Assembly: GCA_030425805.1 (NCBI GenBank) | Contig: JAUHZC010000003.1 | Coordinates: 701 to 64,700, forward strand | Length of the DNA stretch: 64,000 bases | Origin: Alphaproteobacteria bacterium | Lineage (GTDB): Bacteria > Pseudomonadota > Alphaproteobacteria > JAUHZC01 | Direction: 5' to 3' | Notes under the pieces: model-generated | Told to the model about the DNA's origin: nothing | Database searches by the model: none | The model's input: the letters and a program-made list of their open reading frames with translations, nothing else | Part shown: one piece after another, positions 11,534 through 47,592 of the stretch | Layout: every line of letters starts with the position of its first letter | How positions within the stretch are numbered: position 1 is the stretch's first letter | Translations under genes and position numbers: made by a program

Positions 11534-13351
11534 ATGAAGAAATTATACTTTTCCTTGTTCTTAATTCTTTCTCTTTCTGCAAGCAGCTATGGAGCTGCTG
11601 AGCCAGAGGCTACTCCTGGTGCTTCATCCTCGTCTGAAGCAGCCACAGCGCAGACACATGTTGATGCTCTACTTGCAGAATTGGACACTATGCGTGCAAA
11701 ATTTCATGGATGGGCTACTTCTCCAGCAGTCACAGCCAAGATGGGAGCCCTAACCCCATTTATGTTTCGTGGATGGGAAAGAGCCCGCAGAGATGTCCGT
11801 CGCTTGACTGTCCCTATGCGTGCCCATGCTGCTTCCCTCCCTCTGCACCAAAGGAAAGAAGGAGCGACTATTCGGGGCGCTCAATCCCCCATCCTTGCGG
11901 CTCGTTTCAAGGCCTTTGCAAGGATTGCACAAGCTCATATTGATGCTATTCGTACCAGAGGAGAAGAAATTTACAATCCTGGAAGGTTTGCAGGGGTTCT
12001 TGCAGAATTTGGAGGACGTGAAACACTTTCTGTTCATGAGATCATGACAGCAGTTTTGCGTATTACAACAGCTCTTTCTCCTGTAAGTCTGGAGAATGAA
12101 GCTATGGGTAAATTTACCCCTGAAGAAAAAAGTCTTCCGTGGTCAAAATATACAGGAGATCATTTGCACGGTTTTAAATCGAGTCGGCCTGCAGACTTTT
12201 CTTCACCGCAAGAACTTGCTAGTGAATTTCTTGATAAATTGGTAGGAAGTGCTCTGGATCCGATCCCTCTTCCCCTTCCTGGACAAGGCTTTCTTGGCAC
12301 TGGAACCCTAGGAATTCTTGTGACTTCTGGTGTAGGGGCCATTCCCCTTTCTTGCGAAGTCTGTAAGGTTCATGGTCTTGAAATGGCCTCAACAACAAGT
12401 GTTGAACATGATGCCTACCACTTGTTGGCCTCTTTTCTGACAAATCCAAGACCAGCTCTCCGTCAAGCAACCATTAGATACATTGCACAACACCACCCAG
12501 GAAAAGATGTTTTAGCGCTCCCTCCAGAAACCTTTGATGAAGCTGTCCTACATGTCCTAAGGAACTATGTAGAGTATGTAAGGTTTATGATAGGTGTTTT
12601 TAGGGCCGCATTAGAAAACGACGACCGTCCACAAGCTACCCGAGATTTAAATGCATTTTTCCTTATGGTTCACGAACTTGTTGGCGTGACTCCTCGCCTT
12701 GAAAACGAAGGTGGTAGTGTGGCAATGCTTGCAGAATACCTCACTGAGATCAGGGAAACAAATATTGAAAAAGAGACGCTTGGAAACCCAGATTCGCCTC
12801 TCCTAGCTGTGCTTGAAGATCGACTTGCAGCAGAGCCAGGTTTTGGAGCCTTTGAAACAGGGGGTGCTCGTTCAGATACGACAGATCTTTCCTTCTTAGA
12901 TGAGGCTGTTCAGGCACATTTGCGCCAGAAATATGGTGCTCCTGCAGGGGCTTATACGGGAACTCGTATTCAGAAAGTTTTTAACACAGGGTCAACCTGG
13001 CAAATTGAACTCGTTGTACCATACACAGGATCTGAGCCTGTAGCTGGAGTGCTTCATGTTGTTCTTGTCACAAGAAAATATCGAGAAGGGGATCGTCGTG
13101 ATGCCATAAAAACTCTACGCCTTTTTGGTCCTGAATATGCAGCCTTCGCAGGAAATCCCTATGGCCCTCTCTCTGAAGAGTTAAATGCTTTTGCTGATCG
13201 ACTGCTAGCACTTCATTTCCCTGGTGGCGGAGGAGGTGGAGGGGCAGCAGGGCAGCTAGCGGCAGCAGCGGGAAATGAGGACGAAGCCTTAGCGCCACAG
13301 GCTGGAGGTGGAGGAGGAGCAGCGGCAGCAAGCGCAGGTGGAACTCTTTAA
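11534..13351 (+). CDS. hypothetical exported protein with Gly/Ala-rich C-terminal tail
   Basis: Sec-type signal peptide (MKKLYFSLFLILSLSASSYGAAE). No recognisable domain. The C-terminal ~45 aa are almost purely G/A ('GGGGGGGAAGQLAAAAGNEDEALAPQAGGGGGAAAASAGGTL'). Lies between tRNA-Cys and tssF. Confidence 0.55.
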   Translation: MKKLYFSLFLILSLSASSYGAAEPEATPGASSSSEAATAQTHVDALLAELDTMRAKFHGWATSPAVTAKMGALTPFMFRGWERARRDVRRLTVPMRAHAASLPLHQRKEGATIRGAQSPILAARFKAFARIAQAHIDAIRTRGEEIYNPGRFAGVLAEFGGRETLSVHEIMTAVLRITTALSPVSLENEAMGKFTPEEKSLPWSKYTGDHLHGFKSSRPADFSSPQELASEFLDKLVGSALDPIPLPLPGQGFLGTGTLGILVTSGVGAIPLSCEVCKVHGLEMASTTSVEHDAYHLLASFLTNPRPALRQATIRYIAQHHPGKDVLALPPETFDEAVLHVLRNYVEYVRFMIGVFRAALENDDRPQATRDLNAFFLMVHELVGVTPRLENEGGSVAMLAEYLTEIRETNIEKETLGNPDSPLLAVLEDRLAAEPGFGAFETGGARSDTTDLSFLDEAVQAHLRQKYGAPAGAYTGTRIQKVFNTGSTWQIELVVPYTGSEPVAGVLHVVLVTRKYREGDRRDAIKTLRLFGPEYAAFAGNPYGPLSEELNAFADRLLALHFPGGGGGGGAAGQLAAAAGNEDEALAPQAGGGGGAAAASAGGTL

Positions 13352-13415
13352 TAAGACATCCCCTTCCCGGATAAGGAAAATCTTGGTAAGATGACCTGAC
13401 TTAGACAACATCAGG

Positions 13416-15239
13416 GTGGTTCGGGTGTCTTTAGCCCCATTGCTTTATTACTACCAACGAGAAATGAATTACCTCCGCAATGCGGGGCAGCGGTTTGCGC
13501 AACAATACCCAAAAATTGCCAAGCGCTTGGAGCTTGATCTTCAGGGATCTAGTGATCCCCATGTGGAGCGTCTCTTGGAAAGTTTTGCCTTTCTAACAGG
13601 AAAGATCCAACGGGATCTTGATGATCAATTCCCTCGTGTTGCTCAAAATCTCTTGAATGTTCTGTATCCCCACATGATGCAGTCCATGCCATCCACAACA
13701 ACACTTTGCTTCAAGCCAGATCCAGATCAAGCCCCTCCAAATGTTGGTATTGTCATTCCGCGCTATTATCCTATGTTTGCTGAGGTTGGGGAAGAGAATG
13801 AAGCATGTTGGTATCGCATTACACAAACGATTGAGCGTTACCCGTTAGAAGTGGAGAAAGTCCGTGTCTGTGGCCCGAGTGATCTTGGCTTGACTGGAAA
13901 GCGAGCTGTTTCTGAGCAGTGCCTTCATATTAAGTTTGAGGACATCTCTAGTATCCATATTTACAATCACATGCCAAAGAAAATTTGCATGCACTTGAGT
14001 GGAGATCCTCGGACAAAGCACTTGATTCTCCAGGCTCTTCTCTCCCAAGAGAATATTCAAATCCTTTGCGGAGACTTGAGTAAGGGCGAAGAAAATATGG
14101 AGGTTCTCCCCCGGGGAAGCCTGGTGCACCGTGGTTTTGAACAAGATGAATCCCTGCTCCTTCTTCCAGAAACTTATGGAGCTGGTCACCGCCTTTTAGA
14201 CGAGTTTTTCCACTATCCAGACAAATACATGTACCTTGATGTGGAAAATATTCCATATAACCTCTGTGAAGAGCAACTGGATCTTGTCTTTTCCCTACCC
14301 CGAGATTTTGAACTCAAAAACGGCCCACTCGATAAAGATACAATCATGTATGGTTGTGCCCCTGCCGTGAATCTCTTTCCTGTACTCACAGAGCCTGTTT
14401 CTCTCAAGCACACCCAAGTTGAGTATCGTCTTGTCGGAGATTATCGACGGGAAAACAGTGTTGAAATTCATTCCATCCACCGTGTGCTCGGCGCGAGTGA
14501 TGATCAGGATGAACCTTTTGAAATGGAACCCTATTTCAGCCTCCGCCACCAATCCTATAATAAAAATGGATCTTTTTGGCATGCGCGCCTCGTGCCCATG
14601 GAAATGAACAATGTTCAAGGAACGGATGTTCTGATTTCATTTGTCGATGCTGCTTTTAACCCCATCACCTCTCCCGTCGAAACAGTCTATGGGGAAGTCA
14701 TCTGCACAAATCGTGCAGCAACGCATATGATTGGTGCAAATACAACTTTTGCTAATGATGGGGATAGTGTCGAGGGTTACACTGTTACATGTATTGATAA
14801 ACCGACTTCTCAGGTTTACCCAGCCTTGGATGGACGAAATCAGTGGAAACTGATCTCATCACTTGCCCTAAGCCATCTCTCCCTCGCTGACCAAAAAGAT
14901 GGTCTAAAGCGCCTCCAGGAAACGCTCCTCCTCCATTGTCGCACGCCAGAGCAATACAGTATCGTTGATGGACTTGAGAAAATGACCATTAAAGATAGCG
15001 CCCACCGCTTTGGTAATGAGGCTTGGCGGGGCTTTGTACAAGGCATGGACATTGATATTCACATGGATGAGCAAAATTTTGCAGGCACAAGTTCTTTTCT
15101 GTTCTCTGAAATTTTGAGTTATTTCTTTGGTGAATATGCTGGTATGAACAGCTTCACCCGCCTGAATTATTATAACACCCAACAGAAAGGAGTGCGTCAC
15201 CGATGGCCAGCCCGCAGCGGAAATCGCGCCCTTCTATAG
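13416..15239 (+). CDS. tssF: type VI secretion system baseplate subunit TssF (ImpG/VasA family)
   Basis: The N-terminus 'LLYYYQREMNYLRNAGQRFAQQYPKIAKRLEL...DPHVERLLESFAFLTGKIQRDLDDQFPRVAQNLLNVLYPH' matches the highly conserved TssF N-terminal block (cf. 'LLxYYNxELxYLRExGxEFAxxxPKIAxRLxL...DPYVERLLEGFAFLTARVxLKLDxEFP'). 607 aa, which is typical TssF length. Confidence 0.8.
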   Translation: MVRVSLAPLLYYYQREMNYLRNAGQRFAQQYPKIAKRLELDLQGSSDPHVERLLESFAFLTGKIQRDLDDQFPRVAQNLLNVLYPHMMQSMPSTTTLCFKPDPDQAPPNVGIVIPRYYPMFAEVGEENEACWYRITQTIERYPLEVEKVRVCGPSDLGLTGKRAVSEQCLHIKFEDISSIHIYNHMPKKICMHLSGDPRTKHLILQALLSQENIQILCGDLSKGEENMEVLPRGSLVHRGFEQDESLLLLPETYGAGHRLLDEFFHYPDKYMYLDVENIPYNLCEEQLDLVFSLPRDFELKNGPLDKDTIMYGCAPAVNLFPVLTEPVSLKHTQVEYRLVGDYRRENSVEIHSIHRVLGASDDQDEPFEMEPYFSLRHQSYNKNGSFWHARLVPMEMNNVQGTDVLISFVDAAFNPITSPVETVYGEVICTNRAATHMIGANTTFANDGDSVEGYTVTCIDKPTSQVYPALDGRNQWKLISSLALSHLSLADQKDGLKRLQETLLLHCRTPEQYSIVDGLEKMTIKDSAHRFGNEAWRGFVQGMDIDIHMDEQNFAGTSSFLFSEILSYFFGEYAGMNSFTRLNYYNTQQKGVRHRWPARSGNRALL

Positions 15240-16240
15240 GGGAATATCTCTTTGAGGAGCCCTATAAGTTTGACTTTCACCAGGCTTTAAAAATCCTGGA
15301 TGCCCTTAATCCTAAGGGTGTTCCTGTTGGAGAAGGCGTCCTCCCTGAAAGGGAATCCGTGCAACTGAGATCTCGGGTTTTTTTGGGTAGCTCTCCGAGC
15401 CAGCTCCAACAACTCCTGCCAGGACATCGACTGGATCCTCCTAAACTTGAAGTGAATTTTATGGGAATAGCAGGAGAATCTGGCCCCCTACCTGCTGTCT
15501 ATGCTGAAATGCTTCTTGAGCGCAAAGCTAAAAAAGATCACGCAATGGACGATTTTCTCCAGATCTTTAACCATCGGCTTCTCTCAATGGTTGCAAGAAA
15601 TGGGCGTAAGCACTGGCCAGCTCTTCATAATGGGCGTATTGAAGACAATCCTTTTGCTGATACCTTGCTTTCTTTGTCAGGGATGTTTTTCCTCAAAGAT
15701 AGCCCTCTGAAAACTATTGAAAATCGGAGTTTCCTTCCCTACACAGGGATGCTTTGGGATCAACGATGTTCAGCACGTTCCCTCCAGGACATGATAAGAA
15801 ATTTCCTCCAAGTCCCCGCAGCCGTAAAATCTTTCATTGGCAAATGGCATCATATTCCAGGAAATGCCCAAACACGCATCCACTCTGTGTATGAAAAAGG
15901 ACAAAATCACCGCCTTGGAGAAACAGCTACACTAGGAGATCGATACTGGGATCAAGCCGCTGAAATTCTTGTAGAGCTTGACCTTGAGAAGTTTGAGCGA
16001 TGGGAAAGTCTCTTACCGGGCCAAATTGCTTGGTCGCGTGTGATGACACTGATTCGCTCAGCTGTTCCCTCCCAAATCCAGGTCCAAGTTAAGTTGACTC
16101 TCTCTCAGAAACAATTCAAACCCACCCGACTTGATCAGCAATCTCCCCTCGGCTGGGGAAGTTTTCTTGGCTCCCCAAAAAAAACAAAAGAAAGCTTCGG
16201 AATCAGTGGGGAGTTTTGTCAGAATCTAGAATTATACTAA
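15203..16240 (+). CDS. tssG: type VI secretion system baseplate subunit TssG (ImpH/VasB family)
   Basis: N-terminal 'EEPYKFDFHQALKILD' matches the TssG hallmark 'EPxRFxFFQAVRLLE'. 345 aa. Overlaps the tssF stop, the usual tssF-tssG coupling. Confidence 0.75.
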   Translation: MASPQRKSRPSIGEYLFEEPYKFDFHQALKILDALNPKGVPVGEGVLPERESVQLRSRVFLGSSPSQLQQLLPGHRLDPPKLEVNFMGIAGESGPLPAVYAEMLLERKAKKDHAMDDFLQIFNHRLLSMVARNGRKHWPALHNGRIEDNPFADTLLSLSGMFFLKDSPLKTIENRSFLPYTGMLWDQRCSARSLQDMIRNFLQVPAAVKSFIGKWHHIPGNAQTRIHSVYEKGQNHRLGETATLGDRYWDQAAEILVELDLEKFERWESLLPGQIAWSRVMTLIRSAVPSQIQVQVKLTLSQKQFKPTRLDQQSPLGWGSFLGSPKKTKESFGISGEFCQNLELY

Positions 16241-23234: not shown

Positions 23235-23693
23235 ATGGTGGATGAGTTAAATTACGACCTCATGGTACAAGAAGCGCTCCGCCGGATTGTGCGGGATGCC
23301 TTGACTGTTGTCCAAAATCATGGACTTGCAGACAATCATCATTTCTACATTACCTTCCGTACCAACCGAAGTGATGTGAGCCTCCCCCCCTACTTACGGG
23401 AAAAACACCCTGAAGATATTACTATTGTTCTTCAGCATCAATTTTATGACCTCGCTGTTTATGAGAACCACTTTGAGGTCACGCTTAGTTTTAATGACAA
23501 ACATGAGCGCTTGAAAGTTCCCTACGGAGCGATTACAAGCTTTATGGATCCTTCCGTAAAATTTGGTCTTCAGTTTGTGCCACAAGCTGAAAACTATGCT
23601 ATGGATCCAAAAAACCCCACCCCCGAAGGGGCAGGGCCTACGTCTAGTAAGGTCGTTGACCTGGCTGCGTTTCGCCAACGCCGGGGATCTTAA
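23235..23693 (+). CDS. sspB: ClpXP adaptor SspB-like protein
   Basis: Resembles alphaproteobacterial SspB ('YDLMVQEALRRIVRDAL...HHFYITFRT...'). Ends with a flexible tail preceding 'AAFRQRRGS', reminiscent of a ClpX-binding peptide. Confidence 0.65.
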   Translation: MVDELNYDLMVQEALRRIVRDALTVVQNHGLADNHHFYITFRTNRSDVSLPPYLREKHPEDITIVLQHQFYDLAVYENHFEVTLSFNDKHERLKVPYGAITSFMDPSVKFGLQFVPQAENYAMDPKNPTPEGAGPTSSKVVDLAAFRQRRGS

Positions 23694-24598
23694 CCGTCCG
23701 TTGGAGCAGCAGCAGCGGCAGCAGCGCCTAAGGTGCCCGAAGCATCAACGTCAATAGCTTCTGCGGCGGCAACTCCTTCATCGTCATCGTCTCCACCACC
23801 TTCTTCAACAGCCATAACTTCGGCAGCAGCTGCCACAAGAATTGTGAGTGCCGCTGAAGCCTTAGCTGTAGCTGCTTCAATATCCTCAGCTGTCCAACCA
23901 TCGTGAGGTGTTGGGTCAGCCAATGCACCCCCTAGATCATCTAGTTCATCTTTTAGAGCTGTAATTTTTCCGAATTTTACTTTTGCAACTTCTACAAGAG
24001 CTGTAAGAGTCTGCATGAGCTTCCCAAACTTTTCTAGCTTCCCTTCTGGGGGACCTGCAGCTTTTACTGTATTCACTATCTTCCCAACAGTATTAAGGAA
24101 AAGCTCCAAACTTGCACCATTTTTGCCACGTAAGTCCTCCAACTGTTCCATTACTGTCTCTGCAGTCTCCGCTGCTGATGTTGCTTTTTTTATGCCATCA
24201 TCAATACCGTCAAGAACTCCATTCAAGTCCCTCAATGCTGCCGCTTGTTCTTCTGTTAATAAACCAAGTTCCCCAAGCATTCTTTCTACAGATGTGACGA
24301 GCCCTCTCACTCTCACAAAGCCTCTTTGTGCTGCAGTCGCTGCATGACGTGCAGCCTCAACAGCAGAATCAAGATTATCCCAGACAACAACTGCAGCAGC
24401 CTGTGCCCCTCCACAGCACCTAGCAATCCACCCTAAACATCCTGTTGGGGCAGGTAGCTCCCTCGTAAGATGTTCCTCCTTCGGGATTTCCTTCATTGCC
24501 TCTCGAAGCGGAGCTGAGTCTGAAACATCTGCCCCATAACCAGGCATTGAATAAACGCTCCCAAGTAATAGACAAACAAAAGTTGAAACCTTTTTCAT
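23690..24598 (-). CDS. hypothetical exported alpha-helical protein with Cys-Cys motif and acidic Gly/Ala-rich tail
   Basis: Signal peptide (MKKVSTFVCLLLGSVYSMPGYGA), 'GCLGWIARCCGGAQAAAVVV', then long predicted helices. The C-terminus is 'EEGGGDDDDEGVAAAEAIDVDASGTLGAAAAAAAPTDG'. Confidence 0.5.
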   Translation of the reverse strand: MKKVSTFVCLLLGSVYSMPGYGADVSDSAPLREAMKEIPKEEHLTRELPAPTGCLGWIARCCGGAQAAAVVVWDNLDSAVEAARHAATAAQRGFVRVRGLVTSVERMLGELGLLTEEQAAALRDLNGVLDGIDDGIKKATSAAETAETVMEQLEDLRGKNGASLELFLNTVGKIVNTVKAAGPPEGKLEKFGKLMQTLTALVEVAKVKFGKITALKDELDDLGGALADPTPHDGWTAEDIEAATAKASAALTILVAAAAEVMAVEEGGGDDDDEGVAAAEAIDVDASGTLGAAAAAAAPTDG

Positions 24599-26925: not shown

Positions 26926-27001
26926 TCCCCGGTAGCTCAGTTGGTAGAGCAAGTGGCTGTTAACCACTGGGTCGGCGGTTCGAGTCCGTCCCGGGGAGCC
27001 A
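26926..27001 (+). tRNA. tRNA-Asn (anticodon GTT)
   Basis: Cloverleaf read by eye: acceptor TCCCCGG/CCGGGGA, D-arm TAGCTCAGTTGGTAGAGC, anticodon loop CT-GTT-AA, T-arm GGTTCGAGTCC, CCA encoded. Confidence 0.85.
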
Positions 27002-27945: not shown

Positions 27946-29082
27946 TTACCTTACAGCCCCTCTCAAAAAGGGCTCAGCCCTCACAGATCCCCTTTTAAGA
28001 TAAAGTTGGAAATGCTTACGCTCTGCCTGTGGATCCTGAACAACGATGTGGTCTGGAACAGGGTCAGCATGACAGCGGCAATGATGTTTCTCTCCAGGCA
28101 GGAAATCAGGAGGATTTTCTCTTGAATAGACTTTTCCCTCTCTTTCCAGATGTTCCATCCGCACTTTTTTGTCCATCTTCGTACGCCAGATAAAGTACGC
28201 CTTATTCTTTCCCCACTGATAAGCCTCTTTACCTTGGGATTGAGGGGAGATTCTGGTCTTACCAATCTCTGCCTGCTGGATCCCATAAGAAAGGGCATGT
28301 GTTGGTTTTGTATAAGTCGGGCATTGATAGGAAGCAAGGAGTGCAGCCTCAGCATCCCGGCGATTCTGAAGGCTAGGATCTCGCTTTACATTCGATCGTT
28401 CCTTCACCTCCCTCACCGCACCCTGAAGATAGGAAGTCTTACCCGTTTTGACATAGTTCCGGATAAGTTGGCAGAAAGTTGTTTTTCCATTGGCTAACTC
28501 AGGATGATTAAAATAAAGACTCAAGATTGTCATTTTTTCATTAGCCCGGAGTCTTTTCCAATCAGGACCATAGATATTGCAGACTTCCTGATACCGGGTT
28601 TGGATAGAATCTTTATAAGCCAAGGTGACCTGTTCATCGGTTAGGTTTTTCTCACCATAGTAGACCTTCTTCATCAGACCAGGCTCTTTGAAAAGCTGGT
28701 CATAATAAAGTTGGGTCTTTTCTTCGTTGATGTTTAACCCGATACCGACCGTGCAAATTGGTAATTGTTTATATTTTGCAAAACAAATTTCCTCTAATTG
28801 GTCACGCCTTTCTTGGCCCAAAGCATAGAATTTTTTGGAGGAGATATACTGTGTTTTCTTATCAGGATCTGGAATACCATCCAAATAGGCTTCATTGCGA
28901 CAACCTTCAACGGTGGTGATAAAAAACTTAAGCCGATCGAAAAAAATATCATCCTCTAAATCATGAACACTCTGAGCAGAATAGTTATGTATTGAATCCC
29001 GCAGTATTTCTGAAATCCGGGTTTTTTGACGGTCCCCCAAGAAACTTCCCCTTGTGTTTTTTATAAAGGTAAATTTTCTCAA
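27946..29082 (-). CDS. fusion protein: N-terminal GH24 phage-type lysozyme domain + C-terminal phage MuF/SPP1-gp7-like domain
   Basis: The N-terminus carries the lysozyme catalytic block 'TVEGCRNEAYLDGIPDP...ICTVGIGLNI' (E-G...Y.D..G..T.G.G). The C-terminus carries a MuF-type 'KVRMEHLEREGKVY...PGEKHHCRCHADPV' (R..H..L.G...P..HPNCRC) motif. No signal peptide. Confidence 0.5.
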   Translation of the reverse strand: MRKFTFIKNTRGSFLGDRQKTRISEILRDSIHNYSAQSVHDLEDDIFFDRLKFFITTVEGCRNEAYLDGIPDPDKKTQYISSKKFYALGQERRDQLEEICFAKYKQLPICTVGIGLNINEEKTQLYYDQLFKEPGLMKKVYYGEKNLTDEQVTLAYKDSIQTRYQEVCNIYGPDWKRLRANEKMTILSLYFNHPELANGKTTFCQLIRNYVKTGKTSYLQGAVREVKERSNVKRDPSLQNRRDAEAALLASYQCPTYTKPTHALSYGIQQAEIGKTRISPQSQGKEAYQWGKNKAYFIWRTKMDKKVRMEHLEREGKVYSRENPPDFLPGEKHHCRCHADPVPDHIVVQDPQAERKHFQLYLKRGSVRAEPFLRGAVR

Positions 29083-29144
29083 AGTGTTTTGTCAAAGGAG
29101 ATAAGCACTTTTTCGTGATGAAATTACACCAATTTTACACACCC

Positions 29145-30014
29145 CTATTTATATTCAAAGGCACCAAAGGGAATGTGGTATAAACCCCGCATAGCAAAAT
29201 CCTCGGCTTTTTCTTTCGGGTAATTCCTTTTCAACCAATATGATGTTAATACTGCTTTTGCTTTTTCATAGCGCGGCAAAATACGACGATAGATTTTCTT
29301 GTTATAAGCACTTTTCTTTCCCCAACTTTCATAGGGGCGTAGAGATTTATCGGGTACTGGTGGAAGGCCCCATGGTGCAACATGCGTGAGGACAAAATTG
29401 CGGCTGTAAGTTTTGATAAAATAGTAATACATTGTTCCGTCTTTATCAGGATTAGGAAAATTTTTCCCATATGCCTGTTTTGAAACTTCCAGATATTCAT
29501 CCAGTTCACGATAGGGGTAAGGGATATCCTTGTCGTAATCGTCAGGGATAATAATGCCCACGATACCAATATCACGCGTACATCCAAATCTAGGTCTCGT
29601 TGCCTCAACAAGCCCCGGAAATTTTTCTAAATCTTCTGGTGAAAGTGCAAAATGTCGATGATAGCCGCCATATGCGATGGTTGTCACAAGGCTTTTATCC
29701 GTACCATCATAAGCCATAGGGTCCCCAAACTCATATATGCTGAGTCCTCTCTCTACAGGAACAGAATTGTGAATTTTCTGCTGCAATCGTAAAATTTCAC
29801 CAAATTCATCCTGTGTTTTGGCGGGTTTACTATGAAGATCAAGTATTCTCCGTAAAATTTCCTGCACTTCCTCAATAGAGAGGGTAACTTCATTTGATAA
29901 AGAATTTTTTCCTCTTTCCTGATTGCACTCCCCTCGAACAGAGGAACTACACAAGAGTAGCAGCACTGCAAAAGTGAGCAAAAATAAACTTTTTGGAGAT
30001 AAGAATTTTTTCAT
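29145..30014 (-). CDS. hypothetical exported protein
   Basis: Signal peptide from the internal ATG (MKKFLSPKSLFLLTFAVLLLLCSSSVRG). No recognisable domain. Trp/Tyr-rich. Confidence 0.45.
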   Translation of the reverse strand: MKKFLSPKSLFLLTFAVLLLLCSSSVRGECNQERGKNSLSNEVTLSIEEVQEILRRILDLHSKPAKTQDEFGEILRLQQKIHNSVPVERGLSIYEFGDPMAYDGTDKSLVTTIAYGGYHRHFALSPEDLEKFPGLVEATRPRFGCTRDIGIVGIIIPDDYDKDIPYPYRELDEYLEVSKQAYGKNFPNPDKDGTMYYYFIKTYSRNFVLTHVAPWGLPPVPDKSLRPYESWGKKSAYNKKIYRRILPRYEKAKAVLTSYWLKRNYPKEKAEDFAMRGLYHIPFGAFEYK

Positions 30015-30054
30015 AATATATCTTTCTAAGTATAAAATCATAATTGATATCAGG

Positions 30055-30507
30055 TTATTCCTCTCCCAATCTCCCAAACTTCAGCAGGATGGCATTAGCC
30101 CGGAAATGTACATCTCGCTCATTATAACCAAGTTCAATGGCTTTTTTGTAATCTTTGAGGGCGCCTTCCAGATTTCCTAGGTCCTCTTTACTTACCCCGC
30201 GATGGTAGTACACTTCTCCCAAGTAGGGCTGGCGATTGTATTTTATTGCCAAAGTAAGGGCCTCCATTGCATCTTGGTAGCGCCCAAAAAAATCAAGGGT
30301 CACGCCTCTTTGAAAATGAGCTTCTGCATTTTCAGGTCTATATTTCAAAATATCTTCACTCAGAGCTAAGGCTTCCTCTAGCTTTGCTGTTGCCCGGAGG
30401 TCAAAAATTTGGAAGCGAATTTTTCTATTTGACCAATCTTCATATTTGGCATGTCCTTCATAGGCTATCAGGCTTAAGAAGGTTAAAAGTGTCAGTGCGG
30501 TTTTCAT
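30055..30507 (-). CDS. exported tetratricopeptide (TPR) repeat protein
   Basis: Signal peptide (MKTALTLLTFLSLIAYEGHA), followed by three or four TPR-like units ('AEAHFQRGVTLDFFGRYQDAMEALTLAIKYN', 'YYHRGVSKEDLGNLEGALKDYKKAIEL'). Confidence 0.6.
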   Translation of the reverse strand: MKTALTLLTFLSLIAYEGHAKYEDWSNRKIRFQIFDLRATAKLEEALALSEDILKYRPENAEAHFQRGVTLDFFGRYQDAMEALTLAIKYNRQPYLGEVYYHRGVSKEDLGNLEGALKDYKKAIELGYNERDVHFRANAILLKFGRLGEE

Positions 30508-32693: not shown

Positions 32694-33047
32694 ATGTATG
32701 ATACCACAAATGTCTTTTGGAAAATTCTCGAAGGAGACATTCCTTGCACCCCAATCTACGAAACAGATCATATTTTTGTCTTTCCAGACATTGCACCCAA
32801 ACGAAAGATCCATCTTCTCTGCATCCCCAAAGGGAAATACACTGATTTCTCTGACTTCACTAAGAATGCCACAAAAGACGAGATCCAAGGATTTTGGAAA
32901 GGTGTTCAGGACGTTATTCGCTCTCACAACCTTGAAGACCAGGGATATCGTATTATTTCAAATATGGGATCTCAAGGAGGGCAGGAAGTGCCTCATTTTC
33001 ACATTCATATTCTTGCAGGAGAACCTGTGGGGCCTTTGGTAGCCTAA
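32694..33047 (+). CDS. HIT-family (histidine triad) hydrolase
   Basis: 'QEVPHFHIHILAG' HxHxHxx motif. Confidence 0.8.
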   Translation: MYDTTNVFWKILEGDIPCTPIYETDHIFVFPDIAPKRKIHLLCIPKGKYTDFSDFTKNATKDEIQGFWKGVQDVIRSHNLEDQGYRIISNMGSQGGQEVPHFHIHILAGEPVGPLVA

Positions 33048-34432
33048 GTGCTTGCTGATGCCCCTGCTGAAGCATCCGTTTCCGAGCAAAAATCTGCAAT
33101 TGTTTCTTTGATCCAGGTGTTGACTTCTGGTCGACCGAGATAGCTTGCATAAGTTTCACGATGATACACATTGCTGCCGTGCTCAGGCCTTATAATTGAA
33201 GGACCCATAGAGTAGCGCACATAGCATAAGATGCCAGCTAATTTCCCTCCAATAAACAGAGGAGACCCAGAACATCCTGAAAAAGGGCTTCCTGTGATAC
33301 GCAATTCATCTGAACGATCAGTTGTATGGATATAGTCTAGATCCTCAGCCTCATTTGCATTTACAAGGACCTCTGTACCATCTGAAATTGCTTTATAATG
33401 AGGGGAAACCTGATGAAGAAAAACTTGTAGACTGGACGTACTGTCTCTGAACAGCTCTTGAACTTTTCCCCCAACATAAGAGAGATATTTACCAATACCC
33501 GCAGGTCTTTCTTCTGAATCCACAACCTCAGCAACGGAGCATTCTTCACTCCACCCCGCAACACAAATTAAGGCTAAATCAATGGGAATATGTGAAACTT
33601 CCCAGGCATGTACATGAGAAGGACAATCTGAGTCAAAAAGGGCTACTTTTGAAACTGGGTACCCTTCCCTTCCTTGGTAAAGGGAGAAAGAAGATTCACG
33701 GCCTTGGATTGCCTTCGCTACATGTGCACAGGTTAAAAATACTCCTGGTGCGATCAGTGTTGCAATACCCCGGCTACTCCCCTTCATAACTCCAATGTAA
33801 AAGATTTTTGAACGATCAGGATCTGTACTCCCCGCAATCAAGGACCGGACCCTTGCATGTTCTGTAGGAAAGTAAATTCCCGAAATACTCCGTCGTATTG
33901 TTAGCAATAGATCTGTTTCTGTCCCTCCAGAAGCCCCTTCAGCCTCCATGAGCTCTTCAAGTTTCTCTCTTAAAGCCACATCTTTAGCTTCACCATATGA
34001 GGCCTCCTCAAAAAAATCTGTAGAGCCTGTCTCTCTTGTTACTAACCCTTCTGACACTAATTCTGCTATGGCTGCTTCAGAAAGATTCTCCCCTGTTGCA
34101 ACGTCAACAAAATCAGCAGCCTGATAATATTCAGCAGCTAGAGCATATTGTTTTTGAGCTTGTGCAGAACGACCCAGATAATATAAAGCTTCTGAACGGA
34201 TCTCAACACGCGCAGAGAGTAGTTTTCTTAAACAAAACTCTCCTGCTTTATAAGCACCTTTTTCAATAAGGCATTTCCCATGATTAAGTTGGTTTGGAAG
34301 CCGTATTAATTCTTCAGCAATTTCTTTTGTGCTCCCTAAAAAAACAGGGTTAGAGCGATACGAAACCTCCAGTGCTTGAGCACCCCATACCAATACAGGC
34401 AAAAAAGCCCACAAAAAACACCACCGTGCCAT
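33044..34432 (-). CDS. exported trypsin-like (S1) serine peptidase with N-terminal TPR/Sel1-like region
   Basis: Signal peptide; the N-terminal half is helical repeat ('ALYYLGRSAQAQKQYALAAEYYQAA'); C-terminal 'GVFLTCAHVA' (His) ... 'GCSGSPLFIGG' (Ser) catalytic motifs. Confidence 0.6.
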   Translation of the reverse strand: MARWCFLWAFLPVLVWGAQALEVSYRSNPVFLGSTKEIAEELIRLPNQLNHGKCLIEKGAYKAGEFCLRKLLSARVEIRSEALYYLGRSAQAQKQYALAAEYYQAADFVDVATGENLSEAAIAELVSEGLVTRETGSTDFFEEASYGEAKDVALREKLEELMEAEGASGGTETDLLLTIRRSISGIYFPTEHARVRSLIAGSTDPDRSKIFYIGVMKGSSRGIATLIAPGVFLTCAHVAKAIQGRESSFSLYQGREGYPVSKVALFDSDCPSHVHAWEVSHIPIDLALICVAGWSEECSVAEVVDSEERPAGIGKYLSYVGGKVQELFRDSTSSLQVFLHQVSPHYKAISDGTEVLVNANEAEDLDYIHTTDRSDELRITGSPFSGCSGSPLFIGGKLAGILCYVRYSMGPSIIRPEHGSNVYHRETYASYLGRPEVNTWIKETIADFCSETDASAGASAST

Positions 34433-42134: not shown

Positions 42135-44825
42135 TTAGCGATGCTTTTCAAAAACCATTACGATTTCTGTTCCCTGGTCAGGTTGAGACCGGACTCTCAT
42201 TTCCCCCTGAGAGAGATCAATGATTTCTTTACAGTATGAGAGTCCAATTCCCATCCCTGAGGATTTTGTTGTAAACATTGGGTCAAATATATTCTCAAGA
42301 ACGTCTGGCTGCATCCCAGGACCATTGTCCTGTATTGCGACAACAACCTTATCCTCATCAACTTCAATTTCGATCTCAATTCGAAGCTGAGAGCCCCTGC
42401 GTCCTTGCCCACAAAAAGCCTCATAAGCGTTTTTGAACAGGTTATGCATGACCTGAATCATAGCTGATTTATGGGTAGAAATCAGAGCATCTTGTATCAG
42501 GCCCTTTAGGATAAAGATCTCCCCCTTTTCTTCAGGCGGGAGAGGATAAATATCGATAGCCTCTCGAAGAATATCCCCGATATTTTCTTTGTGAACAAAA
42601 AGTTCTTTGTTTGTTCCCTTCAACTGCCTGATTGAGAGCTGTTGAATCTGGGAAATGCGTGTCACTGTATTTCCAATTTCCTCGATATTTTTCTGCAACC
42701 CTTCAACATCTTCCTTGCTGCCCTTAATTTCAACCTTCTTTGCAATATTTTTAAGAGAAAATACACGCATTCCTAGGGTTGATAGAGGCGTAGAAAGCTC
42801 ATGAGAAATATAATTTGCTTGGTATTTTTCAAGCTGTTTTGCTGAAAACTCATCCCCCTCTTTTTTTCGAGAGAAGACCATTCCCATGAGGGATGAAAAA
42901 ATAATACTGAAAACAAAAAGTAAAATATCATTAGATGCGAAATCGAAACAGCTTCCTCCGCATAAAAGAATATACAAACCAAAGGCAAGTAGGCTCCCAC
43001 CTGCAAAAAGAATCATAAAAACACGCCAAGAGACGAGGAGAGCCATGAGAAAAAGCCCCAAAGTTAAATTTGTGAGCCCGAATGTATCTAGGTTTCCTAG
43101 AAGACCCTGCACCATCAAAGTGAAAGGAAGCGTTATCATGACAGTGAAATGCCAATAGGCTGTGAAATACCGCAAAAGACTCTTTGGCCAATATCCTTTT
43201 AGCAAGAGGAGAACACAGAGAAAGCCAGAAAATAGCTTGAGAAAAATCATCTCACCAGAAACCAGAGTTGATTTTTGGATCCACATGAAATTCGGCGCAA
43301 TGTAGACACACAGCACAAAAACGGAAAAGCCTGTAGCTGGAAGCCATTCTAACCTAGCTGGATTGAGAATTTCAGAAAAAGAAGGCTTCTTTTTGCTCGA
43401 CTCTCTTTGGATTCTTATGATTTTTTTCTGTGATTCAGGTGCAAACCTAGATTTTGGCTCGAAAAAAAAAAATCGCGTGAAGAAAACTACTGCGTTTCCT
43501 AGCATTCCAACAATAAAACCTGGAACATATGTTAAATCCACAAGATTCAAAACATCCCAAATGATAAAAGAAACAATCCCCCCGAGTACTGCATAAAGAA
43601 AGGTTTTCTCTGAAACTTTGATTCCAAAAATTGCAGCATAAAGCGGAACAACAGCAACTGGACTCCAAAAGCTCATGAAATAGACCATGATACTCAGGAT
43701 ATCCTTGAAAATGAGCGCAATAGCCATAGCAAAAAGAGCTGCAGAAGGAGTAAAAATCCAAATCCAGTTCCGCATACGCTTTTCATCTGATCTTGTTTTT
43801 TCTTTTAATCCAAGAACATCCCCCAAGAAAGTGGAAGTACTTAAGTTCAGAGCAGAGTCTGCAGATGACATAATAACAGCCATGAGGCCTGAGGCCGCAA
43901 TCCCCTTTACACCTATAGGCAAAAACTCTGAAATAAGATGAGGAAAGGCGAGCTTGGAATCAATATTTGGAAAAATAATATAGGCTGCAATCCCAATTAA
44001 CCCAATAAAGAAAAAGAAAGGAAACTCCAGAATTGCCGTCAAAATCATTGATTTAGACATTTGCTTAGGTCCCCGTGAAATGAAAAACCTGTGCAAAATT
44101 AGAGGGTTTAAAATCGGTAAGAATTGAGCAAAGAAATACGTTAGAAGAAGCCCTGTATCTGCTTTTGTATGTACAAAAGAATAGTGCGTTTCAGGGATTT
44201 GAGAAAAGAATTTTTGATATCCCCCAAAGTAGTCTAGCAAAAACATGCAAACTGAAGGAACGCTCACAACGATGAAGCAAAATTGCAAAACGTCCGTGAA
44301 CACAACAGCACGAACCCCCCCAAACATTGTATAAAAAAGAACGATTCCCACACTGAAAAGAACACCGAGATTAAAGGGAATATTTAAAAAATATTGAAAA
44401 ACAAATCCCATTGCTGAAACTTGTAATGCAAATGTTCCAAGGGTCTTAATAAGCGCACTTAATCCAATAATTTTCTTAGCATACTGACCATAAGCCTTTG
44501 CCCCCATATCCCCAGGAGTCATACATCCATGGAATCTTCCCATCTTGGGAATGACAACAACACCGAGAAATAAATCAGCAAATGCCTGCAGTGCTACAAG
44601 AATAAGGATAGGGTAACCGTACTCAAAAACACGGGTAGAAAGCCCTAGACTTGATCCGCCCCCCAACCAAGTAGCTGCCGTTGTACAAACAAGGACGGGA
44701 AGTGAAAAATTGCGATCTGCGACAGAGAAATCTTTTAAGGACTCAACTTTCTTGCCTCTTACAATAGCTACCCACAAGGTGCCGAGAAGAAATAATCCGA
44801 TAATACCTAAGTCAATATTGTGCAT
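42135..44825 (-). CDS. hybrid sensor: sodium:solute symporter (SSF) domain fused to histidine kinase (HisKA + HATPase_c)
   Basis: ~12-13 TM helices of SSF type in the N-terminal ~600 aa. H-box 'ISHELSTPLSTL'; N/G boxes 'HNLFKNAYEAF', 'QDNGPGM', 'GMGIGLSYC'. Confidence 0.8.
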   Translation of the reverse strand: MHNIDLGIIGLFLLGTLWVAIVRGKKVESLKDFSVADRNFSLPVLVCTTAATWLGGGSSLGLSTRVFEYGYPILILVALQAFADLFLGVVVIPKMGRFHGCMTPGDMGAKAYGQYAKKIIGLSALIKTLGTFALQVSAMGFVFQYFLNIPFNLGVLFSVGIVLFYTMFGGVRAVVFTDVLQFCFIVVSVPSVCMFLLDYFGGYQKFFSQIPETHYSFVHTKADTGLLLTYFFAQFLPILNPLILHRFFISRGPKQMSKSMILTAILEFPFFFFIGLIGIAAYIIFPNIDSKLAFPHLISEFLPIGVKGIAASGLMAVIMSSADSALNLSTSTFLGDVLGLKEKTRSDEKRMRNWIWIFTPSAALFAMAIALIFKDILSIMVYFMSFWSPVAVVPLYAAIFGIKVSEKTFLYAVLGGIVSFIIWDVLNLVDLTYVPGFIVGMLGNAVVFFTRFFFFEPKSRFAPESQKKIIRIQRESSKKKPSFSEILNPARLEWLPATGFSVFVLCVYIAPNFMWIQKSTLVSGEMIFLKLFSGFLCVLLLLKGYWPKSLLRYFTAYWHFTVMITLPFTLMVQGLLGNLDTFGLTNLTLGLFLMALLVSWRVFMILFAGGSLLAFGLYILLCGGSCFDFASNDILLFVFSIIFSSLMGMVFSRKKEGDEFSAKQLEKYQANYISHELSTPLSTLGMRVFSLKNIAKKVEIKGSKEDVEGLQKNIEEIGNTVTRISQIQQLSIRQLKGTNKELFVHKENIGDILREAIDIYPLPPEEKGEIFILKGLIQDALISTHKSAMIQVMHNLFKNAYEAFCGQGRRGSQLRIEIEIEVDEDKVVVAIQDNGPGMQPDVLENIFDPMFTTKSSGMGIGLSYCKEIIDLSQGEMRVRSQPDQGTEIVMVFEKHR

Positions 44826-45021: not shown

Positions 45022-47592
45022 ATGTCATATATCGACCTTTCAATTGTGGCTCTTTATTTGATAGGGACATTTATTGTTGGCCTATACTATGGAAAAAGAG
45101 AAGGCAAGTCATTACAACAGTTTGCGACAGGGAATAAAGACTTCTCCGTTCCCCTCATTGCAATCACTATCTTTGCAACCCTAACGGGTGGAAATAACGT
45201 TCTTGGAAATTCTGAGAAAGGATTTCGATACGGCATCATCTTTTATCTGATTGTCTTTGGAGATCCCGTCTACCGGTTGATTATGGCAAAATATTTTGCA
45301 CCACGATTTAGTCGTTTTCGTGACTGTATCTCTGCAGGTGACATCTTAGATAAAAGCTTCGGAAGGTTGGGGCGATGCATTGCTGGGGTTGCTGCTTTCA
45401 TGAAGTGCTCAGGAAGTGTAGCAGCTCAAATTGCAGGGCTCAGCATTGTACTTCAATACATGTCAGGAATTGATTACTTTACAGGTCTTGTGATCGTCAC
45501 ATTCCTCACAATTGCCTACTCTGCTTTTGGGGGAATCACCTCTGTTGTCTTCACAGACGTCATTCAGTTTGTAGCTTTGATTATTGCTGTTCCGCTTGTC
45601 TCAGCTCTCGCTGTTCATAAAGCGGGAGGCGCAAACGTTGTTTTTGAAACAACATTCATCACAAAGCCAGATTTCTCTTTTGAAGATGGAAGTTTTATTT
45701 TCACAATCTTCATGATCTACTGCATTCCAGAACTAAACCCTGTTTTGCTACACCGTCTTCTCATCTCCAGGAATCTTCGTTTCCTCTCTGCTTCTCTCCG
45801 GGCAGCAGCAGCCTTAGCGGTTCCTTTTGGCCTCGTTATGGCTTTGTTAGTAGGATCAGCATATATTCTTGATCCCACCATTGAGCCTAAGAGTGTTTAT
45901 CCGTACCTGATTGATACAATTCTGCCTGTAGGCTTGAAAGGAATTGCTATTGCAGGACTATTTGCAATTCTAATGTCAACAATTGACTCCTTTTTAAACA
46001 CAGCCTCTGTTGCCTTTGCCCAGGATATCTTGGAAGGATTTTTTCCCAAAAAGTTTAATGATCAAACCAAGAAGAAATATGCGCAGTCTACAACTGTAAT
46101 CATTGGTGCGATTGGTTTTTACATAGCAACTCAGTACAACAGCATTGTTTCAATTTTTCTTTTCTCAATGGAATTGTGGGTTCCACTTATGGTTGCTCCT
46201 CTCTATAGCGTAATCTTCAGATATAATGCGACTCAAAAAGATCTAATTTTTTCCTGTCTTGGGGGTGTTGTTGCACTTTACTCTGTAAAATTCAGCCCTC
46301 TTGGAAAAATCCCAGGATTAACTGTTTTTGCTGCATACTTAGGTAGCTTTTTAATGATGTTCAGGAGGGCACTGACATTTAAAAACCTAAAGGAGCTGCT
46401 GACACGACCTGCACGCCCAAGATCAATTGCTCTTGCAGAGAAAAAACGATACATCGTTCCCCAAAATATAGATGCCTTCTGCATTTTGATTGTTTTCTTC
46501 TATGCATTTTCTCCCTTCCTAGGAATCTACGAAAATAAAAATCTACTTTGGCTAGGAATGCATGTCTTGGGAGTTTCTTCTGCTCTTGCTCTCTTCTTTG
46601 GCCGACGTAATAACTTCAGCTTTAAACCTCTTATTCAGCCTTTTGTTATTATGACAGGAGCTCTCATACCTTTCTTAATGGTCCATGTTAGTGGAAAATT
46701 GGAAACACTCTTCTTTATCATGCCAATCTTCCTCTATTTTTCCTCCATGATTGCCTTTAGTAAGTTTTTTCAAGGAATTGCTTTTAGTTTCACGCTTTCT
46801 AAGTTTGTAACTTATTACTATATCGGTCTTCCTGGACTTGGGGCTTTTTATGAAGTTGCTTTTCTCTCAACTGTTCTCATAAGTGGATTTTTTATCTCTC
46901 GTTTAACATTCCACAACCCAAGAGAACGTTATCAAGGTGCTGCTATTGCTATTTCAGAAATTGCCCATGAAGTCAGAACACCCCTCCAATCAATTGCTGT
47001 TGATTTTGGAATGTTAATTGAAGAACTTGGTATTGGTAAAAAAGAGTCTCCAAATCCACTCATTGGAAAAATATATCACAAGCTTAATACCGTATTCTCT
47101 TCTCTGGAACTTATTCTTCAAACCTTCCGAAAAGACGATAAAAATGATCAATATGAAATTATTAATCTGAGTAATCTTTTGCAAAATATCATTGAACAGT
47201 ACTCATTTCCCAAAGATGTCCACGTTACAATTGATGCTCAGTGCCAGAATCTTCACGTCAAAGGTGATGAAGCCGCGCTCCGTGGAGTCTTTTTAAACCT
47301 TATCAAAAATAGTGTTGAGGCTCAGTATGGGCAGGATAAAAAAGAGGTTAATCTCACTTTGAAACAATCTGCAAACTATGCAACAATCTTTGTTGAAGAT
47401 CGAGGTCCTGGTGTAGATCTCAAAGACTCAGAAGTCATTTTTGAGCCTTTCTACACCACAAAGAAATCTGGCACGGGGGTTGGTTTGAGCTACTGCTTAA
47501 AAATTATTCAAAATCAATCAGGTTCTATGTTCTATGAACCACGTCCTGGAGGAGGCGCTCGATTTGTCGTCCAGTTACCTGTGGGGTCATAA
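45022..47592 (+). CDS. hybrid sensor: sodium:solute symporter (SSF) domain fused to histidine kinase
   Basis: SSF-type polytopic N-terminus. H-box 'ISEIAHEVRTPLQSI'; 'LNLIKNSVEA', 'EDRGPGVD', 'GTGVGLSYC'. Divergent from the first SSF-HK across an AT-rich 196-bp region. Confidence 0.8.
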   Translation: MSYIDLSIVALYLIGTFIVGLYYGKREGKSLQQFATGNKDFSVPLIAITIFATLTGGNNVLGNSEKGFRYGIIFYLIVFGDPVYRLIMAKYFAPRFSRFRDCISAGDILDKSFGRLGRCIAGVAAFMKCSGSVAAQIAGLSIVLQYMSGIDYFTGLVIVTFLTIAYSAFGGITSVVFTDVIQFVALIIAVPLVSALAVHKAGGANVVFETTFITKPDFSFEDGSFIFTIFMIYCIPELNPVLLHRLLISRNLRFLSASLRAAAALAVPFGLVMALLVGSAYILDPTIEPKSVYPYLIDTILPVGLKGIAIAGLFAILMSTIDSFLNTASVAFAQDILEGFFPKKFNDQTKKKYAQSTTVIIGAIGFYIATQYNSIVSIFLFSMELWVPLMVAPLYSVIFRYNATQKDLIFSCLGGVVALYSVKFSPLGKIPGLTVFAAYLGSFLMMFRRALTFKNLKELLTRPARPRSIALAEKKRYIVPQNIDAFCILIVFFYAFSPFLGIYENKNLLWLGMHVLGVSSALALFFGRRNNFSFKPLIQPFVIMTGALIPFLMVHVSGKLETLFFIMPIFLYFSSMIAFSKFFQGIAFSFTLSKFVTYYYIGLPGLGAFYEVAFLSTVLISGFFISRLTFHNPRERYQGAAIAISEIAHEVRTPLQSIAVDFGMLIEELGIGKKESPNPLIGKIYHKLNTVFSSLELILQTFRKDDKNDQYEIINLSNLLQNIIEQYSFPKDVHVTIDAQCQNLHVKGDEAALRGVFLNLIKNSVEAQYGQDKKEVNLTLKQSANYATIFVEDRGPGVDLKDSEVIFEPFYTTKKSGTGVGLSYCLKIIQNQSGSMFYEPRPGGGARFVVQLPVGS

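Follow-up and report, generated by a model that had tools for sequence, protein, structure and literature searches.

The 64,000-nucleotide stretch of alphaproteobacterial DNA that we have analyzed (contig JAUHZC010000003.1 of assembly GCA_030425805.1; the window hereafter) contains a gene, termed LysMuF here, whose product is predicted to join a GH24 (T4-lysozyme-type) catalytic domain to the core of the MuF family of phage head-morphogenesis proteins. The gene lies on the minus strand (27946..29040) and encodes 364 amino acids from a TTG codon at 29040. LysMuF and an exported partner protein, which in the window is the tetratricopeptide-repeat (TPR) protein TPR150, appear to form a conserved two-gene module. 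In the reading that we favor, and to which we would give an even chance, LysMuF is a domesticated muramidase of phage or gene transfer agent (GTA) origin that acts in a periplasm, where it is neutralized by the periplasmic partner. That a protein targeting peptidoglycan might be encoded beside one that protects against it had been proposed in outline in a first-pass annotation of the window, and the analysis described here supports this general idea.

The open reading frame (ORF) named in that annotation, 27946..29082, is real and lies on the minus strand; it is the longest form of the gene, with 378 amino acids, and its residue numbering is used throughout. The likely start is at 29040, on which a database copy (P0001, 100% identical, 364 amino acids) and the alignment of homologues agree, the starts of the homologues falling ~10 residues ahead of an RDxxHN motif. 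LysMuF has no signal peptide and the hydrophobicity of its N-terminus is low. Signal peptides and membrane anchors were judged in all cases by hydrophobicity and inspection alone, without a dedicated predictor.

The lysozyme domain

The GH24 domain extends over approximately residues 40-256 (28315..28965, minus strand), as delimited by an AlphaFold2 model coupled with Foldseek and by a profile of the sister clade. The model, built on 27 homologues, has a pLDDT of 88 and a pTM of 0.85, and its best PDB matches are all GH24/T4-lysozyme chains (probability 1.0, target TM 0.6-0.72). A Foldseek search of BFVD with the same model gives lysozymes as well as MuF and minor capsid proteins. The sister-clade profile (alignment A2) matches T4 lysozyme with E 1e-6, and E11, D20 and T26 of T4 lysozyme align with the invariant Glu, the invariant Asp and a near-invariant Thr of that family. 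The equivalents in the window protein are E59 (28906-28908), D68 (28879-28881) and T111 (28750-28752), all on the minus strand, and each is invariant in the 27 aligned sequences of the window clade. The window protein is thus predicted to carry a GH24 domain with an intact Glu/Asp/Thr triad.

This identity rests on structure and on the transitive profile because the Pfam and PDB sequence searches missed the window protein. PF00959 gave no match to it at E<=1, i.e. below the gathering threshold, and PDB searches by phmmer with the window protein and with the clade profile returned no matches. One relative from the sister clade (P0037) passes PF00959, with 26.2 bits against a cut-off of 22.3.

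Between the catalytic Asp and Thr there is a helical insertion of ~40 residues (residues 69-108; 28759..28878, minus strand), modeled with high confidence as helices 82-87 and 90-104. It is specific to the clade, being found in 27 out of 27 close homologues and short or missing in the wider family. The GH24 domain and the MuF core are modeled as a single compact unit.

The MuF core and the C-terminus

The MuF/SPP1-gp7 core comprises residues 286-338 (28069..28227, minus strand), with the pattern YFIWRTxMDxKVRxxH...NCRC, and was identified with Pfam, PHROG, tblastn and BFVD. PF04233 matches these residues with 29.6 bits (E 1.2e-6), which is exactly its gathering threshold; the match spans only positions 56-110 of the 112 in the model, and so the whole domain is not present. 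PHROG 324 (head morphogenesis) matches at 2.9e-13, and TIGR01641 gives 34.4 bits, under its cut-off of 39.65. By Foldseek against BFVD the core of ~50 residues superimposes on phage minor capsid proteins with an rmsd of 1.3-1.6 Å. Ten of its residues (W299, R300, T301, D304, V307, R308, H311, C335, R336 and C337) are invariant in the 27-sequence alignment. The reading of the ORF as GH24 plus MuF therefore stands, with PF04233, PHROG 324, the AlphaFold2/Foldseek comparison and the sister-clade profile in agreement, although of the two Pfam checks proposed for it in the first-pass annotation the one for MuF was positive, at threshold, and the one for the lysozyme was negative.

The combination of the two domains was not found in phages. 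A tblastn search of 50,697 phage genomes (INPHARED) matched the core alone; the alignments, to proteins annotated as minor head or head-morphogenesis proteins, run over 45-65 residues with 40-50% identity. Coverage of LysMuF does not reach 80% in any record, and none has the full lysozyme-MuF architecture. A search for the full architecture in IMG/VR gave lysozyme-only matches. The C-terminal core modeled alone (pLDDT 81) had no meaningful match in a fold search of the PDB (best E 2.6), and at this search sensitivity it would appear to have no solved structural relative.

Beyond the core lie a helix of the KAFELYLRKG type and a basic tail modeled with low confidence, KRGSVRAEPFLRGAVR (27949..28068, minus strand). 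The helix comprises residues 351-364, and the pLDDT is below 50 for residues 368-378. The LYLRKG motif is conserved among the homologues; the C-terminus is conserved, not variable.

Conservation and distribution of the family

Searching protein databases with LysMuF gave 31 matches at E<=1e-3, most of them full-length, 42-50% identical and located on long chromosomal contigs; 27 full-length homologues were taken into the alignment. An exhaustive profile search extends the family to 97 proteins at E<1e-30 and 334 at E<1e-10. Many members of the wider family share three parts, namely the RDxxHNL helix, the GH24 domain and the MuF core, and are without the insertion. The GTDB genomes that carry LysMuF are labeled Rickettsiales, Rickettsiaceae, Holosporales or Alphaproteobacteria (labels of metagenome-assembled genomes), and the full-length homologues sit in environmental Rickettsiales/Holosporales genomes, all outside prophages. 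Further metagenome loci were found with a hand-made degenerate DNA pattern.

LysMuF belongs to a maintained and conserved gene family and is not a decaying phage relic (a phage relic was one option of the first-pass annotation), because 27 aligned full-length homologues at 42-50% identity keep the catalytic triad and the MuF-core residues invariant; the gene itself is intact. The GC content, overall and at third codon positions (GC3), of the lysozyme and TPR genes lies within 1 standard deviation of that of the window genes.

The surroundings differ between genomes. In three related loci, LysMuF is flanked by genes for an ABC transporter and ribonucleotide reductase (L001), by an AddA-type helicase and virB3/B4/B6 (L002), and by the isc cluster and an insertion sequence (L004), and there is no portal or terminase gene near LysMuF in any of the three.

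Two of these loci have features of their own. The family member at L004 (6484-8933) is interrupted by an insertion sequence with DDE_3 transposase genes and is the sole clearly inactivated copy. At L002 (9077-17080) the rvh-type genes virB3-virB4-virB6 follow directly downstream of the lysozyme-TPR pair, the single case of adjacency to a type IV secretion system (T4SS).

The exported partner

TPR150 (30055..30507, minus strand) is a Sec-exported TPR protein of 150 amino acids with the N-terminus MKTALTLLTFLSLIAYEGHA. It matches TPR_1 at 6e-12, and there is a weak, sub-threshold NlpI-like match of 21.8 bits. In tblastn searches its homologues are found directly beside LysMuF (within ~200 bp) in eight related loci, comprising L001 (three tandem copies), L002 (an internally duplicated protein of 304 amino acids), L004, L005, L006, L007 (two copies), L008 and L012. 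Their placement varies, being upstream, divergent or convergent, and the flanks examined are unrelated. All have Sec-type N-termini, with a lipobox-like motif in the L006 copy (alignment A3). The window TPR150 is 24-40% identical to its homologues, compared with 44-49% for LysMuF.

On the same strand of the window the order is hslVU, TPR150, p289, LysMuF, so that both TPR150 and a second exported protein are encoded upstream of LysMuF. The latter, p289 (29145..30014, minus strand), has 289 amino acids counted from the Met that opens its signal-peptide-like N-terminal segment, MKKFLSPKSLFLLTFAVLLLLCSSSVRG. It has no Pfam, PHROG, NCBIfam or PADLOC family and no similarity to the partners in other loci, and its sole match among 5.8 billion proteins is itself. 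When the window neighbors were searched by tblastn, TrhO, HslU and p289 were never syntenic with LysMuF in related loci. The two exported neighbors noted in the first-pass annotation are consequently real, both with Sec-type N-termini, but they are not equivalent: by sequence comparison p289 is an orphan outside the conserved module and TPR150 is the only conserved partner of the two, and the synteny that was to be compared in relatives is kept for TPR150 and not for TrhO, HslU or p289.

There is an imperfect direct repeat of 23 nucleotides (29097-29119 and 29995-30017, 83% identity) around p289, and the DNA just upstream of LysMuF resembles the 5' end of p289, with ATG changed to ACG. The repeat may be the footprint of an insertion or duplication of p289, or it may be due to chance.

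Among its relatives LysMuF nearly always has a small exported protein beside it. In the wider family this neighbor is again Sec-exported, but of families unrelated to TPR150. One is a Cys-containing family of 173 amino acids (L086, with two copies 92% identical, L104 and L133), another has 203 amino acids (L087, L010, L011 and L099), and at L088 the partner is a Sel1-type protein of 317 amino acids. At L090 there are two LysMuF paralogues, and each has ahead of it an exported protein of its own; these two exported proteins are themselves paralogues (366 and 531 amino acids, 38% mutually identical). Comparison of the TPR family with the partners of other clades by hhalign revealed no relation. 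Tandem copies of the partner occur in L001 (three), L007 (two) and L086 (two). The partners of L086 and L104 share 54-57% identity, compared with 87% for LysMuF, 89% for the NlpC/P60 protein, 93% for g12 and 99% for g13, the neighboring genes at these loci. Tandem copies, cognate paralogues and rapid divergence of this kind are typical of immunity genes. PADLOC gave no match to a defense system. LysMuF and its exported partner constitute a conserved two-gene module, on adjacency counts drawn from a few dozen loci without a formal null model.

Links to gene transfer agents

Some members of the wider family are located among GTA genes. On a contig of 1.54 Mb (L086) the order is NlpC/P60, two exported partners, LysMuF, DUF2460 (g12), BR0599 (g13), an ORF of 200 amino acids and GTA_TIM/Rcc01698_C (g15), and this arrangement is repeated in L104. 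At the divergent locus L137 a g12 homologue lies just downstream. In three independent contigs an HK97-type major capsid protein and the LysMuF module are joined in a single reading frame, giving proteins of 755-765 amino acids (L090, 1660-3927; L091, 549-2816; L093, 7518-9815). By contrast, there are no GTA genes near LysMuF in those loci of the window clade with examined flanks, nor in the 64-kb window, where a tblastn search with the L086 GTA proteins found nothing.

According to published work, the GTA genes of the Rickettsiales are dispersed over the genome and pass on by vertical descent (PMC9203015), and the MuF protein gp7 of phage SPP1 binds the portal and is located in the head (PMC5576092). 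The GTA of Rhodobacter capsulatus (RcGTA) is itself without a MuF-lysozyme gene (PMC5026251). We considered rcc01866 or another RcGTA accessory gene as a MuF-like counterpart, and this has no support in the same source.

Membrane-anchored relatives

In seven loci (L098, L101, L114, L120, L124, L129 and L140) the N-terminus of LysMuF is a strongly hydrophobic anchor, conserved from one locus to the next. The anchored proteins retain the MuF core, and where flanking sequence is visible they have no exported neighbor. At L114 LysMuF is placed between ftsW- and murG-like genes, identified from N-terminal sequences only, and at L105, where the N-terminus of LysMuF is cut off, it is likewise beside ftsW, as read from N-terminal sequence.

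A lysis cassette with an endolysin of the signal-arrest-release (SAR) type was rejected. The window LysMuF lacks a hydrophobic N-terminus, the ORF list has no holin-type small neighbor with multiple transmembrane segments beside it, and the anchors of its relatives are strongly hydrophobic, not of the weak SAR type.

Proposed mechanism and its alternatives

We infer that LysMuF is enzymatically active, that the partner inhibits it, and that LysMuF is exported by the route set out here. Made without a signal peptide, it would reach a periplasm by a non-Sec route, either in a GTA- or phage-like particle or through a machine of the T4SS or type VI secretion system (T6SS) type, with the MuF core and the basic C-terminal tail as the part recognized for loading. 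From what is known of T4SS signals, the basic disordered tail could presumably be read as a secretion signal. Once in the periplasm LysMuF would cleave the glycan strands of peptidoglycan, and the periplasmic partner would bind and neutralize it in the producer and its kin. Neutralization of an enzyme arriving by a non-Sec route is suggested because LysMuF has no signal peptide while its partner has one. It is also suggested because the partner is duplicated, diverges fast and is replaced by non-homologous families, because paralogues occur as cognate pairs, and because the self-anchored enzymes are without a partner. Delivery by particles is favored by the GTA links and the capsid fusion.

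Several observations weigh against this mechanism. In the window the orphan gene p289 separates the partner from LysMuF, and among the ORFs scanned near LysMuF there is no vgrG/hcp/PAAR-type or T4SS gene. TPR proteins also serve as adaptors or regulators of housekeeping cell-wall hydrolases, and TPR150 has its NlpI-like match, although this is weak. Some members of the family may act on the wall of the cell that makes them, as the anchored relatives suggest, one of which is placed between ftsW and murG. Finally, an inhibitor in the recipients seems counter-productive if a GTA delivers the enzyme to kin.

A more specific proposal, which we consider unlikely, is that LysMuF and its partner are a previously unrecognized weapon/immunity (or lysin/anti-lysin) system of environmental Rickettsiales delivered by GTA-like particles. 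The MuF core, and in one lineage the capsid fusion, would load the muramidase into heads, and every lineage would carry a fast-evolving periplasmic protein that neutralizes its own enzyme.

LysMuF could instead be a plain component of a scattered Rickettsiales-like GTA, loaded into heads via the MuF core, that opens the recipient wall with DNA ejection or lyses the producer for release. This overlaps with our favored reading as one possible delivery route, and on its own we consider it unlikely, if foremost among the alternatives. The position of LysMuF and partner between NlpC/P60 and g12, g13 and g15 in L086 and L104, the g12 homologue at L137, the capsid fusions (L090, L091 and L093), the scattered and vertically inherited GTA genes of the Rickettsiales (PMC9203015) and the location of SPP1 gp7 in the head (PMC5576092) are all consistent with it. 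It is harder to reconcile with the lack of GTA genes in the window and at the examined loci of its clade, or of a MuF-lysozyme gene in RcGTA (PMC5026251). Moreover, the MuF core is more than a tag for loading into capsids, since the relatives anchored in the membrane retain it, and a periplasmic inhibitor in kin recipients would hinder the entry of GTA DNA. A serious rival, mainly on account of the anchored relatives beside ftsW and murG, is a housekeeping enzyme of peptidoglycan remodeling with the TPR protein as its periplasmic adaptor or regulator, in the manner of NlpI or CpoB; we think it slightly less likely still. The native base composition would fit such a role, as would the conservation of the family where peptidoglycan genes are retained in the genome (MltA and an L,D-transpeptidase are encoded in the window), the anchored sub-clade with L105 and L114 beside ftsW and L114 also next to a murG-like gene (N-terminal sequences only), and the weak resemblance of TPR150 to NlpI. 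Yet in the window clade LysMuF has neither signal peptide nor anchor and cannot reach its own wall through Sec, its genomic position differs between genomes, and a partner that is swapped for unrelated families, tandem-duplicated and faster-evolving is unusual for an adaptor.

The presence of tssF and tssG in the window, which the first-pass annotation placed 12 kb away, raises the possibility of a muramidase effector with a periplasmic immunity protein that is fired by the T6SS of these genes. TssF (13416-15239) and TssG (15203-16240) are real, and an effector without a signal peptide beside an exported partner fits the logic of Tse/Tsi pairs. While the distance is correct (11.7 kb), the link to the T6SS is not borne out and we regard it as very unlikely. 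The scanned ORFs in between mostly have housekeeping domains, and no vgrG/hcp/PAAR-type or adaptor gene turned up among them, although not every ORF there was scanned; none is listed beside the module in L001, L002 and L004, the Pfam gene tables of these three loci contain no T6SS gene, and L002 instead adjoins virB3/virB4/virB6. Least probable of all, and in our view close to untenable, are two readings that the first-pass annotation had entertained, a prophage remnant devoid of function and a MuF polymorphic toxin of the classical type. Bacterial MuF genes are almost always in prophages or their remnants, and polymorphic toxins of this class have an N-terminal MuF domain, an adjoining portal gene and a C-terminal toxin (PMC5576092); one relative, L004, is disrupted by an insertion sequence. 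The window gene, however, is intact with its catalytic and core residues invariant across 27 aligned lineages, its MuF part is C-terminal and partial with no variable C-terminal toxin, portal and terminase genes are absent nearby, and none of 50,697 sequenced phages has this architecture.

The window locus

The scanned genes of the window are otherwise housekeeping genes or orphans without a family. The housekeeping set includes thiolase, HemN-type, HrcA, Lpd, ThyX, OlsB-like, HslUV, a Mg-chelatase-type ATPase, MltA and an L,D-transpeptidase. As the first-pass annotation had it, there are no phage genes, including portal and terminase genes, near LysMuF among those scanned, and no adjacent prophage. 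A scan for promoters and terminators gave signal no higher than the shuffled expectation.

The proposal of a horizontally acquired cassette linked to a tRNA fared less well. A tRNA-Asn gene is indeed near (26926-27001, plus strand), but it does not immediately adjoin LysMuF, since a rhodanese/UPF0176 (TrhO-type) gene lies between them, converging on LysMuF. No att-like direct repeats of the 3' end of the tRNA-Asn were found, only short repeats at chance level. With no att repeat, native GC and GC3, and a housekeeping gene between tRNA and ORF, such a cassette is not supported.

Elsewhere in the window, tssF and tssG form an isolated pair. Ahead of them is an ORF of 605 amino acids that belongs to no Pfam or NCBIfam family (11534-16240 for the three genes), and behind them are a Tim44-like gene and MltA; the T6SS genes seem to be scattered in this Rickettsiales-like genome. 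An exported Ala/Glu-rich orphan of 302 amino acids (23690-24598, minus strand) has raised GC (0.48), strong local GC skew and no family match. The exported protein of 462 amino acids at 33044-34432 (minus strand) has weak, sub-threshold matches to TPR and trypsin-like peptidase families, and may be a secreted or periplasmic protease. Finally, two divergently oriented paralogous genes (42135-44825, minus strand, and 45022-47592, plus strand) encode fusions of sodium:solute symporter and histidine kinase ATPase domains, an architecture like that of CbrA.

Relation to known systems

Bacteria of the Rickettsiales type are intracellular in eukaryotes, and few ways in which they might interact with other bacteria are known. 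A conserved and intact wall hydrolase with a head-protein tag and a fast-evolving exported partner would point either to an interbacterial or particle-borne weapon with immunity, or to a new form of wall-hydrolase control. If the reading with GTA delivery were true, scattered GTA genes of the Rickettsiales type would still build functional particles that serve conflict between cells. The occurrence of the MuF core in reverse order and outside phages, membrane-anchored forms included, also bears on the function of a widespread and structurally unsolved domain.

LysMuF resembles the GH24 phage-type lysozymes (T4 lysozyme E and the T4 gp5 tail lysozyme; PF00959) in its fold, its Glu/Asp/Thr triad and the sequence context EG.R..AY.D...T.G.G. 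It differs from them in the insertion of ~40 residues within the catalytic N-lobe, the conserved N-terminal RDxxHNL helix and the C-terminal MuF core, and in being encoded on a chromosome outside any phage; the window protein is moreover too divergent for the Pfam model. With MuF/SPP1 gp7 proteins (PF04233, TIGR01641; PMC5576092) it shares a core of ~55 residues (W.T..D..VR..H ... NCRC), 40-50% identical to phage proteins, whereas it matches only the C-terminal half of the domain model and does so at the C-terminus of the protein, not the N-terminus. Unlike MuF proteins and toxins it has no adjacent portal or terminase gene and no variable C-terminal toxin, and a membrane-anchored sub-clade keeps the core.

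A functional parallel may be that of phage T4, in which the gp5 lysozyme is inhibited stoichiometrically by Spackle, a small helical protein of the periplasm (PMC7677548). In both cases the same genome encodes a GH24 lysozyme that enters, or in our case would enter, the periplasm from outside, and a small periplasmic protein. The partner of LysMuF, however, is a TPR protein or comes from some other unrelated family, its sequence is not related to that of Spackle, its inhibitory role is the one that we propose above, and the genes are on a chromosome instead of in a lytic phage.

Among T6SS effectors, Tse/Tsi pairs consist of peptidoglycan hydrolases with periplasmic immunity proteins. The bacteria-killing T4SS effectors of Xanthomonas and Stenotrophomonas combine a glycoside hydrolase at the N-terminus with a recognition domain at the C-terminus, and they too are matched by periplasmic immunity proteins (PMC10933484, PMC11253643). 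LysMuF is like both the X-Tfe/TfcB effectors with X-Tfi and the Tse/Tsi pairs in having an N-terminal glycoside hydrolase, a conserved C-terminal domain, no signal peptide and an adjacent gene for an exported, immunity-like protein. It is distinguished from X-Tfe/TfcB by a C-terminal domain that is a MuF core and not an XVIPCD, by hosts that are Alphaproteobacteria of the obligate-intracellular type, and by a link to a secretion machine that is putative.

Compared with GTAs of the RcGTA type (PMC5026251, PMC9203015), relatives of LysMuF adjoin g12, g13, g15 and NlpC/P60 or are fused to an HK97-type capsid protein, and the genes are scattered as in the Rickettsiales. No such gene is described for RcGTA, and the window clade has no physical linkage to GTA genes. 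We conclude that the lysozyme-MuF family with its cognate exported partner is uncharacterized, that it combines the known themes of a GH24 lysin, a MuF tag and an enzyme/immunity pair, and that its connection to the scattered GTAs of the Rickettsiales type is plausible.

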